Assembly: GCA_041671485.1 (NCBI GenBank) | Contig: JBAZBL010000006.1 | Coordinates: forward strand, 6,539 to 70,538 | Direction: 5' to 3' | Source of the DNA: Minisyncoccota bacterium | Lineage (GTDB): Bacteria > Patescibacteriota > Minisyncoccia > Phycocordibacterales > PALSA-1337 | Length of the DNA stretch: 64,000 nucleotides | Part shown: piece after piece, positions 12,758 through 44,245 of the stretch | How the letters are laid out: the number at the start of each line of letters is the position of its first letter | Position numbering within the stretch: position 1 is the stretch's first letter | Notes under the pieces: generated by a model | Databases searched by the model: none | What the model saw: the letters and a program-made list of their open reading frames with translations, nothing else | What the model was told of the DNA's origin: nothing | Program-made: the position numbers and the translations under genes

Positions 12758-13245
12758 AGTATATAATTTTTACAGATGGTTCTTCTCGAGGCAATCCAGG
12801 GCGTGGTGGCTGGGCAGTCGTTATTATTGAGGATGATTCTATGGTTATTGAACTTGGTGGCAGGGAAGACAAGGCTACGAACAATAGGATGGAATTAACC
12901 GCAGCAATTGAAGCTCTTTCACAAACATCAAGAGATGCAGATATAACTCTATATACAGATTCATCTTATCTCATAGGTGGTATCACAAAATGGGTTAAAG
13001 GATGGAAGAAAAATGACTGGAAAAGAGATATTTGGCAGAAAGATATAAAAAAAGATGTTTTGAATAGAGATCTTTGGGAGAAACTTGATGAATTGAATAT
13101 GGTACGAAATGTTAAATGGAATTATATAAGAGGACATACTGGTAATCATGGAAATGAAAGATGTGACGAAATAGCAACTGCTTTTGCAGATGGTGAAAAA
13201 ATCAGTCTTTTCGAGGGGAAAATGGAAGTCTGGCAGAAAAAATAG
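12754..13245 (+). CDS. rnhA: Ribonuclease HI
   Basis: 163 aa. TDGSSRGNPGRGGWAVVI plus DEDD catalytic residues and GHTGNHGNERCDEIA. Confidence 0.9.
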   Translation: MKYIIFTDGSSRGNPGRGGWAVVIIEDDSMVIELGGREDKATNNRMELTAAIEALSQTSRDADITLYTDSSYLIGGITKWVKGWKKNDWKRDIWQKDIKKDVLNRDLWEKLDELNMVRNVKWNYIRGHTGNHGNERCDEIATAFADGEKISLFEGKMEVWQKK

Positions 13246-13259
13246 GTATTATCGAGATC

Positions 13260-13286
13260 TATTACCGAGATCCGATCTCGGTAATA
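13260..13286. terminator. 27-nt perfect palindrome immediately after the rnhA stop
   Basis: tattaccgagatc c gatctcggtaata. A partial direct repeat tattatcgagatc precedes it. Confidence 0.35.
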
Positions 13287-13296
13287 ATACCGAGTC

Positions 13297-13443
13297 CCCG
13301 AGGCCCGCCTTCGGCGGGGTAGGCCTCGGGAGTGGATTTTATCATTTCTTCAGCAGAATTTTATCAGGATTTTATCTCATTGTGATATCGTGCAGGTTGT
13401 GGAGGTTTCGTTGCGCAGGTCTACCCTGCGCAACGAAACCTCC
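13297..13443 (+). repeat. Composite repeat element, copy 1: GC hairpin (ggtaggcctcgg type), 42-nt AT-rich motif with three ATTTTATC repeats, TGaTAT box, then a REP hairpin
   Basis: Same layout at 17004-17157 and 42798-42916 (reverse strand). The 42-nt motif lies at 13337-13378 and the REP unit cgcaggtctaccctgcg at 13414-13430. The element ends 10 nt before the comEC start. Confidence 0.7.
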
Positions 13444-13453
13444 GCAAAAACCT

Positions 13454-14827
13454 ATGAAGAAAGGCGTGTTTATATTCTGGTTTATTATCATCGGAATCAC
13501 AGTTTTCCGTCTGGTATTTTCTTATGCATCAAATATTTCTATTACAAATGATTGTATGAAAGAGAAGGTGACTGGAATGGGTATGATTACCGAAGAACCG
13601 GAGCGCAAAGAAACTGGGCAAATCCTAATAATCAAAGTAGATGAATTATTAACAAATGAAGCAGATAAATGTTCTAGTGATATATTGATTCGTGCAAAGA
13701 CAAAATTATATCCACGATTTTCTTTTGGAGATCACATCAAATTTATTGGTAATTTATCTGAACCATATAATTTCTCTAGTAATGATGGTAGAACATTCGA
13801 TTATCGTAATTATCTAGCCAAAGACGACATTTATTTTGAGATCAAAAGTGCAATAGTAGAGAAGATCAATGAAGAAAAATCATTTTCAATAAAAGGATCA
13901 CTATATAAGATAAAAAGAAGATTTGTTTCAAATATAGAGCAAGTATTGGGAGAACCTCATTCTGCATTTGCTGCTGGTTTGGTGGTTGGTGAGAAGGGTT
14001 CGATAGGGAAGAGTTTACTCGATGATTTTAGGATTACAGGATTGATACATATCGTCGTTCTGTCTGGCTTCAATATCACAATCATTGCCGATGCTATCAG
14101 GAAACTTCTGTCGAGATTGCCTAGAATGTGGGGTATTTTGCTTGGTGGCCTAGGTATTATTCTCTTTGGAATAATGGTTGGTGGTGGAGCTACGGTTATA
14201 CGTTCTTGTGTTATGGCGAGCATTGCTCTATCTGCCGAATTGGTTAGGCGAGATTATAGTGTTGTACGTGCACTTGTATTTGCAGGAATGATAATGCTCA
14301 TACAAAATCCTATGATCTTATTTCACGATCCATCTTTCCAGCTTTCTTTCTTGGCAACACTGGGTTTGGTCATTCTCGCAAGGCCGATAGAAGATAGACT
14401 GACGTTTTTGCCAGAGAAGTTTGGTTTTAGGAGTATAATATCTGCTACATTTGCTACTCAAATATTTGTATCACCATTTATTCTCTATATGATGGGTCAA
14501 TTGTCTATTATTGGTGTTGTAGTCAATGTCTTGGTCTTGCCATTTATACCTATTACTATGCTAGCTGTATTTCTCGTAGGTATTTCTGGCTTTATTTTTG
14601 AACCCATATCACAATTTTTCAGCTATTTCGCATACGCCCTTCTCTCTTATGAACTCAATATGGTCGAATATTTCGCAAAAATACCCTTTGCCTCATTCAA
14701 AATCCCCGCATTTTCATTCTGGTGGGTTGTGGGGTTTTATCTGGGGTTTTCAATAATCTTTTACTATTTTTATCGGAGAAATAGAGTGAGGGCAGAGAAT
14801 AATATGCTCATTACCTCGACCCATTGA
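13454..14827 (+). CDS. comEC: ComEC/Rec2 competence membrane channel (N-terminal DUF4131 + competence domains, no MBL domain)
   Basis: 457 aa and polytopic. The ORF-track start at 13184 only translates the upstream repeats. ATG 13454 begins MKKGVFIFWFIIIGITVF. The Competence-domain core GLIHIVVLSGFNITIIADAI is present. Confidence 0.75.
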   Translation: MKKGVFIFWFIIIGITVFRLVFSYASNISITNDCMKEKVTGMGMITEEPERKETGQILIIKVDELLTNEADKCSSDILIRAKTKLYPRFSFGDHIKFIGNLSEPYNFSSNDGRTFDYRNYLAKDDIYFEIKSAIVEKINEEKSFSIKGSLYKIKRRFVSNIEQVLGEPHSAFAAGLVVGEKGSIGKSLLDDFRITGLIHIVVLSGFNITIIADAIRKLLSRLPRMWGILLGGLGIILFGIMVGGGATVIRSCVMASIALSAELVRRDYSVVRALVFAGMIMLIQNPMILFHDPSFQLSFLATLGLVILARPIEDRLTFLPEKFGFRSIISATFATQIFVSPFILYMMGQLSIIGVVVNVLVLPFIPITMLAVFLVGISGFIFEPISQFFSYFAYALLSYELNMVEYFAKIPFASFKIPAFSFWWVVGFYLGFSIIFYYFYRRNRVRAENNMLITSTH

Positions 14828-17003: not shown

Positions 17004-17157
17004 TTCCCGATGCCTACTCTCGGAGGTCGTCGATTTTATCATTTCTTCAGCGAAATTTTATCAGGATTTTATCTCGATATGATATGGTGCAAGTTGCGGA
17101 GGCCTTGTTGCGCAGGGTAGACCTACGCACAACGTGCGTAGGTCTACCCTGCGCAAC
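17004..17157 (+). repeat. Composite repeat element, copy 2: degenerate GC hairpin, 42-nt ATTTTATC motif, TGaTAT box, then a REP doublet
   Basis: 42-nt motif at 17034-17075. REP doublet cgcagggtagacctacg (17111-17127) and cgtaggtctaccctgcg (17136-17152). Ends 10 nt before the ATG at 17168. Confidence 0.7.
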
Positions 17158-41609: not shown

Positions 41610-42101
41610 ATGAAAAAATCATATTCAAGAGGTTTCACTCTTATAGAATTGCTAGTTGTTATTGCCATCATCGGTATTTTGGCGTCAGTTGTGTTGGTGA
41701 GTTTGAATAGTGCGAGAAATAAGGGAAAAGATGCTAGAATCATTTCAAGTGTTCAACAGATTAGAACATTGGCAGAGGGGGGTTACAATAATGGTCTTTA
41801 TCTTGATTTTATTGGCGACAGTGACACAACATACAATGAGACAGTTGCTGGTGCTTTAAATACTGCCGGCCCAAACAATACAGCGGTTGCACAGCTTGTA
41901 GCTGATATGACAGCAAATGCTGGATCTGTAGTTTATATGGTTACTGAGGGTAGTACTAACATTGGTGTATCTGCTTATGCAGTATATGGAGCTCTTCCAA
42001 GCTCTCCATCTGGTTCAACCAAGTATTTCTGTCTTGATTCTACTGGAAAGACTAATCAATATGCTAGTGCTGCTTCAACCGTAACTTGCCCAGCTAACTA
42101 G
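41610..42101 (+). CDS. pilA: Major type IV pilin PilA
   Basis: MKKSYSRGFTLIELLVVIAIIGILASVVLV is a class III prepilin leader and conserved N-terminal helix. Confidence 0.85.
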   Translation: MKKSYSRGFTLIELLVVIAIIGILASVVLVSLNSARNKGKDARIISSVQQIRTLAEGGYNNGLYLDFIGDSDTTYNETVAGALNTAGPNNTAVAQLVADMTANAGSVVYMVTEGSTNIGVSAYAVYGALPSSPSGSTKYFCLDSTGKTNQYASAASTVTCPAN

Positions 42102-42179: not shown

Positions 42180-42234
42180 GTTTACGCAGGGTAGACCTGC
42201 GGGGGAATCCCCCGCAGGTCTACCCTGCGTAAAC
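42180..42234. repeat. REP doublet (REPIN-like) next to the RAYT gene
   Basis: gtttacgcagggtagacctgcg ggggaatcccc cgcaggtctaccctgcgtaaac, a 55-nt perfect palindrome. Preceded by the pilA terminator aaaacctagtttcggctaggtttt. Confidence 0.8.
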
Positions 42235-42792
42235 TCTAATAATACTACCTTGAGGTCTATTTTCTCCCAAATAGTCTTTATAACTAGAGAATTCGTATTT
42301 CTTTGAGTATTCTATTGCTTGAGCCAAATATTCAGGTTTGGCAGTTTTCATGAGATCTGGTTCATCTATACTATACGGATTCAAGTGTATGTATTGGATC
42401 AAATATCTCAAATATTCATCATTATCAATATGTTTTTCTTTGTATTGTCCTTGAAATATTGTTCCAGAGTGGTCATATTTTCTGTTGTAATACATTGCGT
42501 ATGATGTGCACAGTTTACGAATAAATCTAGTAATACCACCATCAGTTTTTTCTTCTACTCCTATATGAAAATGGTTTGGCATAAGACAATAGGCAAATAT
42601 GTCGACAATTATATCTCGATTATATTGAAACATGTCTAATGGCTTTATACTACGCAGGTCTACCCTGCGTGTATCATTTGCTGTGTAGAGTAGAGTTATA
42701 AATCTTTCATAATCACCCCTATCTAAAAATATTGGTGCTTTATGGGCTCCACGATTGTATATATGATATTTTTCTCCTAATATATGTGACAT
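42220..42792 (-). CDS. IS200/IS605-family Y1 (HUH) transposase of the REP-associated type (RAYT, TnpA_REP-like)
   Basis: 190 aa from ATG 42792 (MSHILGEKYHIYNRG...). HUH motif NHFHIG, catalytic Tyr region YLRYLIQYIHLNP. Flanked by REP hairpins. The ORF-track start at 42828 translates a REP. Confidence 0.8.
   Translation of the reverse strand: MSHILGEKYHIYNRGAHKAPIFLDRGDYERFITLLYTANDTRRVDLRSIKPLDMFQYNRDIIVDIFAYCLMPNHFHIGVEEKTDGGITRFIRKLCTSYAMYYNRKYDHSGTIFQGQYKEKHIDNDEYLRYLIQYIHLNPYSIDEPDLMKTAKPEYLAQAIEYSKKYEFSSYKDYLGENRPQGSIIRVYAG
42653..42669. repeat. Single REP unit inside the RAYT coding region, in frame
   Basis: cgcaggtctaccctgcg encodes part of ANDTRRVDLRSIKP between the first conserved block and the HUH motif. 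Confidence 0.6.
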
Positions 42793-42797
42793 TAAAT

Positions 42798-42916
42798 TTA
42801 CGCAGGGTAGACCTGCGTAAACAACCATATCACACCGAGATAAAATCCTGATAAAATTTTGCTGAAGAAATGATAAAGTTTTTATCCGAGGGTAGGCCTC
42901 GGAGGCCTACCCTCGG
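42798..42916 (-). repeat. Composite repeat element, copy 3 (reverse strand): GC hairpin ccgagggtaggcctc g gaggcctaccctcgg, 42-nt ATTTTATC motif, TGaTATGGT box, REP; directly upstream of the RAYT start
   Basis: 42-nt motif at 42837-42878 (reverse strand). REP cgcagggtagacctgcg at 42801-42817. 31-nt perfect GC palindrome at 42886-42916. Confidence 0.7.
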
Positions 42917-42961: not shown

Positions 42962-43429
42962 ATGAAAAAGTCTGGCTTTACTCTAATAGAACTTCTAGTT
43001 GTGATTGCTATTATCGCCATATTGACATCCATCGTAATGACCAATTTCTCATCATCGCGCTCCAGGGCGCGAGACGCTAAGAGGGTTTCAGATTTGGGAC
43101 AGATTCAGTTGGCGCTTGAACTTTATTTTGATAGGTGTAAGGAGTATCCAGGTTCATTTTCTACGTCTGCTAATAATGGTTGCCCTTCAGGTATTAGTCT
43201 AATTACATATATTTCACAGATTCCATCATCTCCATCACCAGGATCATATGGCTATCATTTTAATGATAATACTGTTCCTTATAATCCTAATGATTATGTC
43301 TTACATGTAACTCTTGAAAACCAGAATGAAGTCACAATAGATGGAAGACAAAATATTTCAGGTATAGTTTATCCAACTCCATTGCCAACTTGTAATCAAG
43401 TTAAAGAATATTGCATCGGCCCCAAATAA
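42962..43429 (+). CDS. Second type IV pilin
   Basis: MKKSGFTLIELLVVIAIIAILTSIVM prepilin N-terminus. 155 aa. Confidence 0.8.
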   Translation: MKKSGFTLIELLVVIAIIAILTSIVMTNFSSSRSRARDAKRVSDLGQIQLALELYFDRCKEYPGSFSTSANNGCPSGISLITYISQIPSSPSPGSYGYHFNDNTVPYNPNDYVLHVTLENQNEVTIDGRQNISGIVYPTPLPTCNQVKEYCIGPK

Positions 43430-43444
43430 TACCCCTATCTGTAA

Positions 43445-44245
43445 ATGAATACCTCATCACTCATCCTTTCCTTCATCTTCGGTGCTGTGGTCGGTAGTTT
43501 CTTGAATGTTGTAGCAATTAGATTTAATACTGGCAAAAATATAGGTGGTAGGTCGAAATGCATGTCTTGTAGCAAGACACTTGAATGGTTCGAACTTGTA
43601 CCTATATTTAGTTTTATTTTCCAGAGAGGAGCGTGCAAGAAGTGCAAAAGCAAGATTTCTTGGCAATATCCACTCGTAGAATTTATCGCAGGAGCTATAT
43701 TTGTCTTGTTATTCTTCACATTCCCGCCAATATCCTATATTTCTGGCATAACTACATTCATCCAGATATTGTGTGCCTGTTTACTTCTAGTCATTGTAAT
43801 ATATGATATAAAACACAAGATAATACCAGATTCATTTGTATATTCATTTGATATTATTGCTCTTCTTGGCCTATTTATCGGTGGAATTTCTCTTTGGCAT
43901 ATACCTACTTTCTCGCAATTGATAGCTGGTCCACTTCTTGCTATACCTTTTGCATTTCTATGGCTCATATCTGGAGGGAAGTGGATGGGCTTCGGTGATG
44001 CAAAACTTGTACTCGGCATAGGGTGGCTTTTGGGTATAAATGCAGGAATAAATGCAATCATACTTTCTTTCTGGATAGGTGCTATAGTGTCTGTCGCTTG
44101 GCTTTTTGTGAATTACAAAACATTCAAGCGCAATGTTGAAATACCATTTGGTCCATATCTTGTACTTGGAATGTATCTTGTTCTCATATTTGGTATACAA
44201 GTGATCAATCTTGATATTTTATTGACAGCGATTGGTTTTTCGTAG
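43445..44245 (+). CDS. pilD: Prepilin peptidase PilD (A24 family)
   Basis: Tetracysteine CMSC...CKKC, polytopic membrane domain with conserved Asp residues. Confidence 0.85.
   Translation: MNTSSLILSFIFGAVVGSFLNVVAIRFNTGKNIGGRSKCMSCSKTLEWFELVPIFSFIFQRGACKKCKSKISWQYPLVEFIAGAIFVLLFFTFPPISYISGITTFIQILCACLLLVIVIYDIKHKIIPDSFVYSFDIIALLGLFIGGISLWHIPTFSQLIAGPLLAIPFAFLWLISGGKWMGFGDAKLVLGIGWLLGINAGINAIILSFWIGAIVSVAWLFVNYKTFKRNVEIPFGPYLVLGMYLVLIFGIQVINLDILLTAIGFS

Follow-up and report, generated by a model that had tools for sequence, protein, structure and literature searches.

A REP palindrome within the coding sequence of a Patescibacterial RAYT-type transposase gene matches the REP variant of its own surroundings

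In a 64-kb stretch of Patescibacterial DNA (hereafter the window), a complete REP unit was found inside a RAYT-type transposase gene, where the exact 17-mer CGCAGGTCTACCCTGCG forms codons 42-47, in frame, as the initial annotation of this DNA had reported. A REP with identical codon position and frame is found in at least six related genomes, with RAYT proteins 64-75% identical, and the intragenic copy of each contig agrees with the external REPs of that contig. Because the copy matches each genome's own variant, including flanks and amino-acid-changing bases, the sequence comparison indicates concerted evolution of the intragenic copy with the REP population of the genome. The explanation that we prefer, and to which we give about an even chance, is that an old, inherited intragenic REP sits in a tolerant loop and is kept matched through short-patch conversion. 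The coordinates of the features are collected in Table 1.

Table 1. Positions of the RAYT-type gene, its REP units and related palindromes in the 64-kb window.
Feature	Position	Strand	Remarks
RAYT-type Y1/HUH transposase gene, 190 aa + stop	42220..42792	-	ORF, Pfam, structure model
HUH motif codons H74 F75 H76	42565..42573	-	
Y134 codon, presumed catalytic tyrosine in YIHLNP	42391..42393	-	
Family-specific variable loop, residues 39-63	42604..42678	-	between helix 25-37 and the strand into HUH
Intragenic REP unit	42653..42669	.	codons 42-47 (RRVDLR) on gene strand; exact match
Upstream REP, 25-nt palindrome (tttaCGCAGG...CCTGCGtaaa)	42797..42821	.	-10.6 kcal/mol
Downstream REPIN, two inverted REP units, 11-nt spacer	42181..42233	.	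spans gene end
REPIN-like inverted pairs	17111/17137, 35305/35328, 42185/42213, 44252/44277, 48718/48741		
Single REP copies in the window	13414, 42653, 42801		
Second, related palindrome pair (GAGGGTAGGCCTCGG / inverted copy; family CCGAGGGTAGGCCTCGG)	42888..42914	.	intergenic, upstream of RAYT gene

The REP motif, with up to two mismatches allowed, was present in 13 copies in the window, against 0.00 expected from 100 shuffles. Ten of the 13 copies form five REPIN-like inverted pairs with spacers of 6-11 nt. The copy at 42653 lies within coding sequence, and the remaining copies are intergenic or at gene ends. A chance match was ruled out, with no copy expected and with palindromes that are specific to the contig of each gene. 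In frame on the gene strand, the unit reads ACA CGC AGG GTA GAC CTG CGT, giving T41 followed by R R V D L R47. The palindrome reaches 19 nt (42652-42670), and as ssDNA it has a predicted folding energy of -9.9 kcal/mol (z -5.7), comparable to that of the upstream REP. In GTAG-type REPs a conserved GTAG tetranucleotide stands at the 5′ foot of the hairpin (PMC3733652). Here GTAG sits in the loop of the 17-nt unit (CGCAGG-GTAGA-CCTGCG) and becomes 5′-terminal only when the unit is read as one arm of a REPIN hairpin. The REP loops of relatives differ from GTAGA, being ATAGA, TGCGA or TTCCA.

Two further palindromic features of the window were recorded. The second palindrome family, CCGAGGGTAGGCCTCGG, has the same AGG-N5-CCT core as the REP but CGAGG stems, and weaker relatives of it lie at 13315-13329 and 17007-17021. 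The REP at 13402-13442 (core 13414-13430) is a single unit with a stem extended to 18 bp (gaggtttcgttgCGCAGG...CCTGCGcaacgaaacctc), located within the 5′ part of an ORF (13184-14827) that encodes ComEC (Competence, DUF4131). A likelier ComEC start (MKKGVF, about 13454) lies downstream of this REP and leaves it outside the ORF, and the copy is therefore probably intergenic, between an RNase H gene and comEC. The initial annotation had also invoked a comparable case in recJ; the copy at 13414, the sole other single copy checked, does not correspond to it, its host ORF being comEC.

The gene that carries the intragenic REP was then characterized at the protein level. Its ORF covers 42220-42828 on the minus strand; homologues place the true start at the ATG at 42792, and an identical NCBI protein (P0001, from a 'Candidatus Paceibacterota' assembly) has the same start. 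The protein matched Pfam Y1_Tnp (PF01797) with 34.7 bits (cut-off 23) and the NCBIfam equivalog REP_Tyr_transpos with 40.6 bits, below the cut-off of 80. Since the first threshold was passed and the second was missed, its sequence places it as a Y1 transposase from a divergent branch and not as an equivalog of enterobacterial RAYT. A total of 1258 RAYT homologues were found, and the branch is mostly Patescibacterial. H74 and H76 are invariant in 33 aligned homologues and align with HMH of E. coli RayT; Y134 is invariant in the same alignment, and its counterpart in E. coli RayT is the Y of YIYINP. The AlphaFold model, built on the homologue alignment, had a pLDDT of 89 and a pTM of 0.86, and a Foldseek search of this model against the PDB returned 4er8_A (E 1e-6), the RAYT of E. 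coli in complex with a REP hairpin, at the top, followed by ISDra2 and IS608 TnpA. A sequence search of the PDB with the single protein gave no match, and the profile of the 33 homologues reached 4er8 only at E = 0.19. From the full-length ORF, the invariant catalytic residues and the confident model, the transposase gene is judged to be intact. The view that it might be a pseudogene in waiting is not supported, given its full length and the invariance of H74, H76 and Y134.

No second RAYT copy was found within the 64-kb window. The pairing of RAYT and REP is called cognate from the flanking arrangement. The neighbours of the RAYT gene are type IV pilin-like genes with the N-terminal motif GFTLIELLVV (41610-42101 and 42962-43429), and an N_methyl pilin gene also adjoins the RAYT gene in three of the related loci (L161, L162 and L165). 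These shared neighbours suggest conserved synteny and vertical inheritance of the RAYT gene. The nearby ORF 43445-44245 apparently encodes a polytopic membrane protein.

The REP-encoded residues sit in a surface loop that is peculiar to the Patescibacterial branch of the family. In the AlphaFold model the loop has a pLDDT of 79-84, and residues 41-47 are modelled as coil after helix 25-37, forming the least confident portion of the catalytic core. The initial annotation had correctly placed the REP between the N-terminal block (YNRG) and the HUH motif (H74-F-H76), and its estimate that this segment is about 14 residues longer than in E. coli was roughly right, the distance from the first strand to HUH being 65 residues versus 52. 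It attributed the extra residues to a recent in-frame hit by the cognate REP, after which the gene may still be active or may be a pseudogene in waiting. A segment about 13 residues longer than in E. coli RayT and a unit that is a perfect copy of the REP core would agree with such a hit. However, the extra length is common to all aligned Patescibacterial homologues: all 33 (49-75% identity) possess the segment without an alignment gap, so that it is native to the subfamily. Moreover, a 17-nt unit is too short to explain 13 residues, the copies are orthologous in genomes whose RAYT proteins have diverged to the extent given above, and the gene retains its length, its catalytic residues and a confident structure model. 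A recent hit as the source of the extra residues is therefore hardly credible.

Loop length was also compared between genes with and without the REP. In 34 non-redundant genes of 55% identity or more, the N39-V63 loop measures 23-24 residues, both with the REP (9 genes) and without it (25 genes). The REP-less relatives carry a peptide of equal length at this place, THKLDFKKLKP in L007 and TSKLSFKRMKP in L002, versus TRRVDLRSIKP in the window. Because loop length is equal with and without the REP in the group of the window, no recent insertion took place here. On the other hand, in the group with 39-55% identity the loops with a REP are longer than those without (median 29 vs 25 residues, p = 3e-5). 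The idea of an in-frame insertion thus fails for the window group, although these longer loops agree with a genuine one at a deeper level of the family. The Taylorbacteria locus L009 (10136-10192) carries two inverted REP copies in one loop, 21 nt apart (YRGSTS and DRGGTSV), and its loop is not longer than those of its relatives despite the two units. Insertion of a whole REPIN in L009 was rejected, given an internal gap of 21 nt versus external spacers of 4 nt and a loop that is not lengthened.

The relatives were taken from 166 collected loci with homologous genes, of which 146-161 non-redundant genes were used depending on the coverage filter. A metagenome scan with the single protein gave mostly relatives of 40-50% identity, and the close clade was obtained from contigs that encode homologues. 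These contigs are fragments of metagenome assemblies, so REP populations are sampled per contig and represent each genome in part. The same six codons are palindromic in the window gene and in L001, L163/L164, L165, L166 and L003. Since all these relatives carry the REP at the same codons, the alignment indicates that the intragenic REP predates the divergence of the genomes that share it. Decayed REP forms are present at these codons in L024 and L161, and the REP is absent from codons 42-47 in the close relatives L002, L004 and L006. In a tree calculated without the loop, a rough neighbour-joining tree of about 100 columns, the genes that share the REP form one clade with the exception of L003. 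The tree places L003 outside this clade, though its loop is clearly of the clade type.

The intragenic copies differ between these genomes and follow the local REPs. In L166 both the gene and the external REPs have CGTAGG...CCTACG, which relative to CGCAGG...CCTGCG is a compensatory synonymous pair. In L165 the loop ATAGA is found inside and outside the gene and gives Ile instead of Val, and in L003 TGCGA is found at both places and gives Cys. L001 has the same core as the window, and through a synonymous change of ACA to ACC its copy matches its own REPs over 22 nt including flanks. Over 21 nt, the mean number of mismatches is 0.8-2.5 to the REPs of the same genome versus about 3-8 to those of most other genomes. 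The window copy is perfect to its own REPs only across the 17-19-nt core, and over 21 nt it is no nearer to them than to those of L001. Outside the unit, the DNA of the window gene and that of L001 is 66% identical and 42% of the codons for the same residue are identical, whereas inside the unit all 6 codons and all 18 nt are identical.

The external REPs were considered as possible fragments of the RAYT gene, and this was rejected, the similarity stopping 1-3 nt past the palindrome. In a related proposal, the genomic REPs descend from a master copy inside the gene and the match needs no conversion. The RAYT gene appears to be inherited vertically and has one copy in the window, and the match between internal and external copies is specific to each genome, both as expected from a master copy. 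However, the external copies share only 1-3 flanking bases with the gene, and no gene-derived flanks have spread. They occur mostly as inverted pairs with their own spacers, and AGG-N5-CCT REPs also exist in genomes in which the RAYT gene has no intragenic copy. We consider descent from a master copy very improbable.

The association of gene and REP was next surveyed family-wide. The REP palindrome of the gene's own contig was found in this loop in 33 of 146 genes and elsewhere in the gene in another 7 of 146. Of the 37 palindromes inside these genes, 35 have further copies in the contig to which they belong, with a density of 0.27 per kb compared with 0.0034 per kb of other contigs, an 81-fold difference. 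Where a GC-rich palindrome has copies outside the gene, it almost always lies at residues 41-58, with few cases at 80-84 or close to the C-terminus; AT-rich palindromes that lack outside copies are spread along the gene. All variants have the AGG-N5-CCT core and differ in the outer stems. The AGG forms a whole codon in 8 of the 9 genes at 55% identity or above; in the 39-55% group it occupies codon positions 3, 1 and 2 in all of the 28 genes. The palindrome is intact in only about a quarter of the family genes, and its position within the loop is not the same between clades. In L026 (4084-4105), L029 (5401-5425) and L036 (1627-1652), the REP of the genome lies in another loop behind the HUH motif, at about residues 80-84, and some relatives (P0098) bear a long insertion at this post-HUH loop.

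These data bear on whether the RAYT gene is simply a hot zone for REPs, in which repeated independent insertions occur, in-frame hits in the loop survive and deletions restore the length. REPs crowd both ends of nearly all family genes, and with crude ORF calls the REP density in RAYT coding sequence (0.86 per kb) is close to that of sequence not inside ORFs (about 1.2 per kb) and exceeds that inside other long ORFs (0.13 per kb) by a factor of 6.7. The longer REP loops of the 39-55% group and the presence of REPs at residues 80-84 and at the C-terminus, two other variable spots, also agree with repeated insertion. However, independent hits should not give a uniform phase, since none of the three frames contains a stop codon. 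Moreover, the window clade shares an identical codon position, and no gain in length is seen at 55% identity or above, even in L009 with its two units. The uniform phase within clades excludes fresh, repeated insertion there and fits a replacement that preserves length and frame, and as a general explanation repeated insertion is improbable. In other ORFs of at least 120 aa, about 90 REP copies were located well inside (63 loci, at least 3 external copies each; crude ORF calls), which suggests that REPs within coding sequence are no rarity in genomes of this small size.

The REPs that border the gene were also analyzed. The 17-nt core of the upstream REP ends 8 nt before the ATG. The downstream REPIN contains the RAYT stop codon (TAG, 42220-42222) together with the last three codons and folds as a perfect 28-bp hairpin (-37.6 kcal/mol). 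Relatives show the same REP layout around the RAYT gene. The C-terminus of the protein (Y-A-G-stop, 42220-42229) accordingly falls within a REP unit, and the C-termini of homologues are variable and look REP-encoded, such as ...RRVDLRT in P0017 and ...ILACAG in P0007. The 5′-UTR REP and the intragenic REP (42653-42817, minus strand) match perfectly as inverted copies, with 131 nt between them. The RNA fold of lowest energy (-67.9 kcal/mol, z -5.7) pairs the two REPs in a predicted 21-bp duplex, which encloses the start codon and the first 41 codons. An inverted upstream REP at 121-134 nt was found in all four window-clade genomes (the window, L001, L166 and L003), whereas orientation is mixed across the family, with about 18 inverted versus 14 direct. 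A universal pairing geometry with the upstream REP is thus not supported.

Two processes, short-patch conversion from neighbouring REPs and selection on the hairpin, would keep the copy matched with length and frame unaltered. The intragenic REP could be a selected cis-acting site whose match is maintained by selection and not by conversion. RAYT might bind or cleave the ssDNA hairpin, or the hairpin, alone or with the 5′-UTR REP, might limit RAYT translation, so that transposase dose would be tied to the enzyme's own recognition sequence. We hold this alternative to be possible though doubtful. The single codon phase in 28 of 28 genes of a clade with differing stems would be explained by it, as would the compensatory changes that preserve the palindrome, the frozen synonymous sites, the predicted RNA duplex around the AUG and the inverted arrangement in the window clade. 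In IS200, an mRNA stem-loop limits tnpA translation. For REPs close to stop codons, a role in regulating translation has been reported (Liang, Rudd and Deutscher 2015). However, a selected site is hard to reconcile with a palindrome that is intact in about a quarter of the genes only, with the relatives L002, L004 and L006 that do without it and with the decay visible in L161. The mixed orientation to the upstream REP and the loop position that varies by clade also speak against it. In the more specific form, the intragenic REP would be a feedback element that acts on the transposase's own gene or mRNA and couples its dose to its recognition sequence. It may do so by pairing with the 5′-UTR REP and hiding the start codon, or as a site of RAYT binding or cleavage. 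We consider such a feedback element rather unlikely.

The preferred explanation, conversion of an old copy, would proceed as follows. A REP would have entered the loop in an ancestor, with at least two entries in the family as judged from the two codon phases, and the loop would tolerate whatever peptide results. The copy would then be overwritten repeatedly from neighbouring REPs by short-patch conversion that preserves length. The most economical route, which is a conjecture, would be template switching with the inverted REP about 130 nt upstream. Where conversion stops, the copy would decay to AT-rich codons of the same length, as the sequences of L161, L002, L006 and L007 suggest. As a side effect that is not required, a hairpin of -10 kcal/mol in mRNA or ssDNA would probably damp RAYT expression. 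Conversion is favoured over selection because the copy has decayed in many lineages and close relatives do without it, and because its position differs between clades and REPs have long been thought to homogenise in this way. Gene conversion is a long-standing proposal for the homogenisation of REPs (Higgins, McLaren and Newbury 1988). Several points weaken conversion. The units of 17-23 nt appear short for RecA-dependent conversion, and template switching is conjectural in its place. The window copy is no closer over 21 nt to its own REPs than to those of L001, as seen above. The upstream inversion that template switching would use, constant in the window clade, is not kept family-wide, so that no single geometry would serve everywhere. 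In addition, the one phase held down to about 40% protein identity could equally fit selection on the hairpin.

The system was compared with known ones. REP/REPIN-RAYT systems ('REPtrons') have been described in Enterobacteria and Pseudomonas (Nunvar 2010; Bertels and Rainey 2011; Ton-Hoang 2012; Corneloup 2021), and their flanking repeats are thought to be mobilised by RAYT. As in the REPtrons of the E. coli rayT/yafM (TnpA-REP) type, a Y1/HUH gene that is single in the window has palindromic repeats on both sides, the repeats occur as inverted pairs dispersed between genes, and 4er8 is the best structural match. In the E. coli K-12 rayT control (L168), REPs were found at 459-513 and 1201-1356 and none inside the CDS (638-1135). 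In contrast, the REP here belongs to the coding sequence and follows the genomic variant. The window protein also differs from E. coli RayT in its 23-residue loop and a C-terminal extension and is a distant relative.

The IS200/IS605 elements (IS608 and ISDra2 TnpA) share the catalytic fold and the arrangement of a tnpA-type gene between hairpins. Their enzyme recognises subterminal hairpins on ssDNA. However, these hairpins lie outside tnpA and the whole unit is mobile in multiple copies, whereas the window gene looks fixed and, with its shared pilin neighbours, vertically inherited, and a third hairpin lies within its reading frame. Palindromic elements of Rickettsia, reportedly described by Ogata and co-workers in 2000, are said to lie in frame inside protein-coding genes. 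Intragenic REPs are described as having lengthened, by insertion, the products of host genes unrelated to the repeat, often genes of replication or repair (Di Nocera et al. 2013, PMC3733652). Like both, the palindrome here is in frame, is translated as a loop peptide and has not inactivated the gene. Unlike both, its host is the repeat's own presumed transposase, the window clade shows no added length over its close relatives, and the copy is orthologous and co-varies with the genomic REPs. RAYTs with flanking REPs and intragenic REPs in unrelated genes are thus already known. In the limited collection of literature searched, no description was found of a RAYT gene with an internal REP, nor of REP-RAYT systems among Patescibacteria.

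Among mobile repeats that persist in one lineage jointly with a domesticated transposase, REP/REPIN-RAYT pairs are the best studied, and how repeat and enzyme stay matched is an open question in the field. A copy in the enzyme's gene that tracks the variant in many Patescibacterial genomes is a built-in marker, from which REP-RAYT co-evolution can be read in one gene. It also offers a natural test case of short-patch conversion versus selection on a coding hairpin, with an encoded residue (V, I or C) that varies with the variant. The sequences also indicate widespread, active REP systems among the candidate phyla radiation with its small genomes, for which the searched literature gave no description of them. 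The intragenic REP is moreover a candidate autoregulatory site. If the feedback element is real, it would explain how one codon phase persists through deep divergence together with the current REP variant. In that case it would also serve as a natural record of how REP and RAYT co-evolve, and would make this the first domesticated REP transposase described with a built-in self-target.
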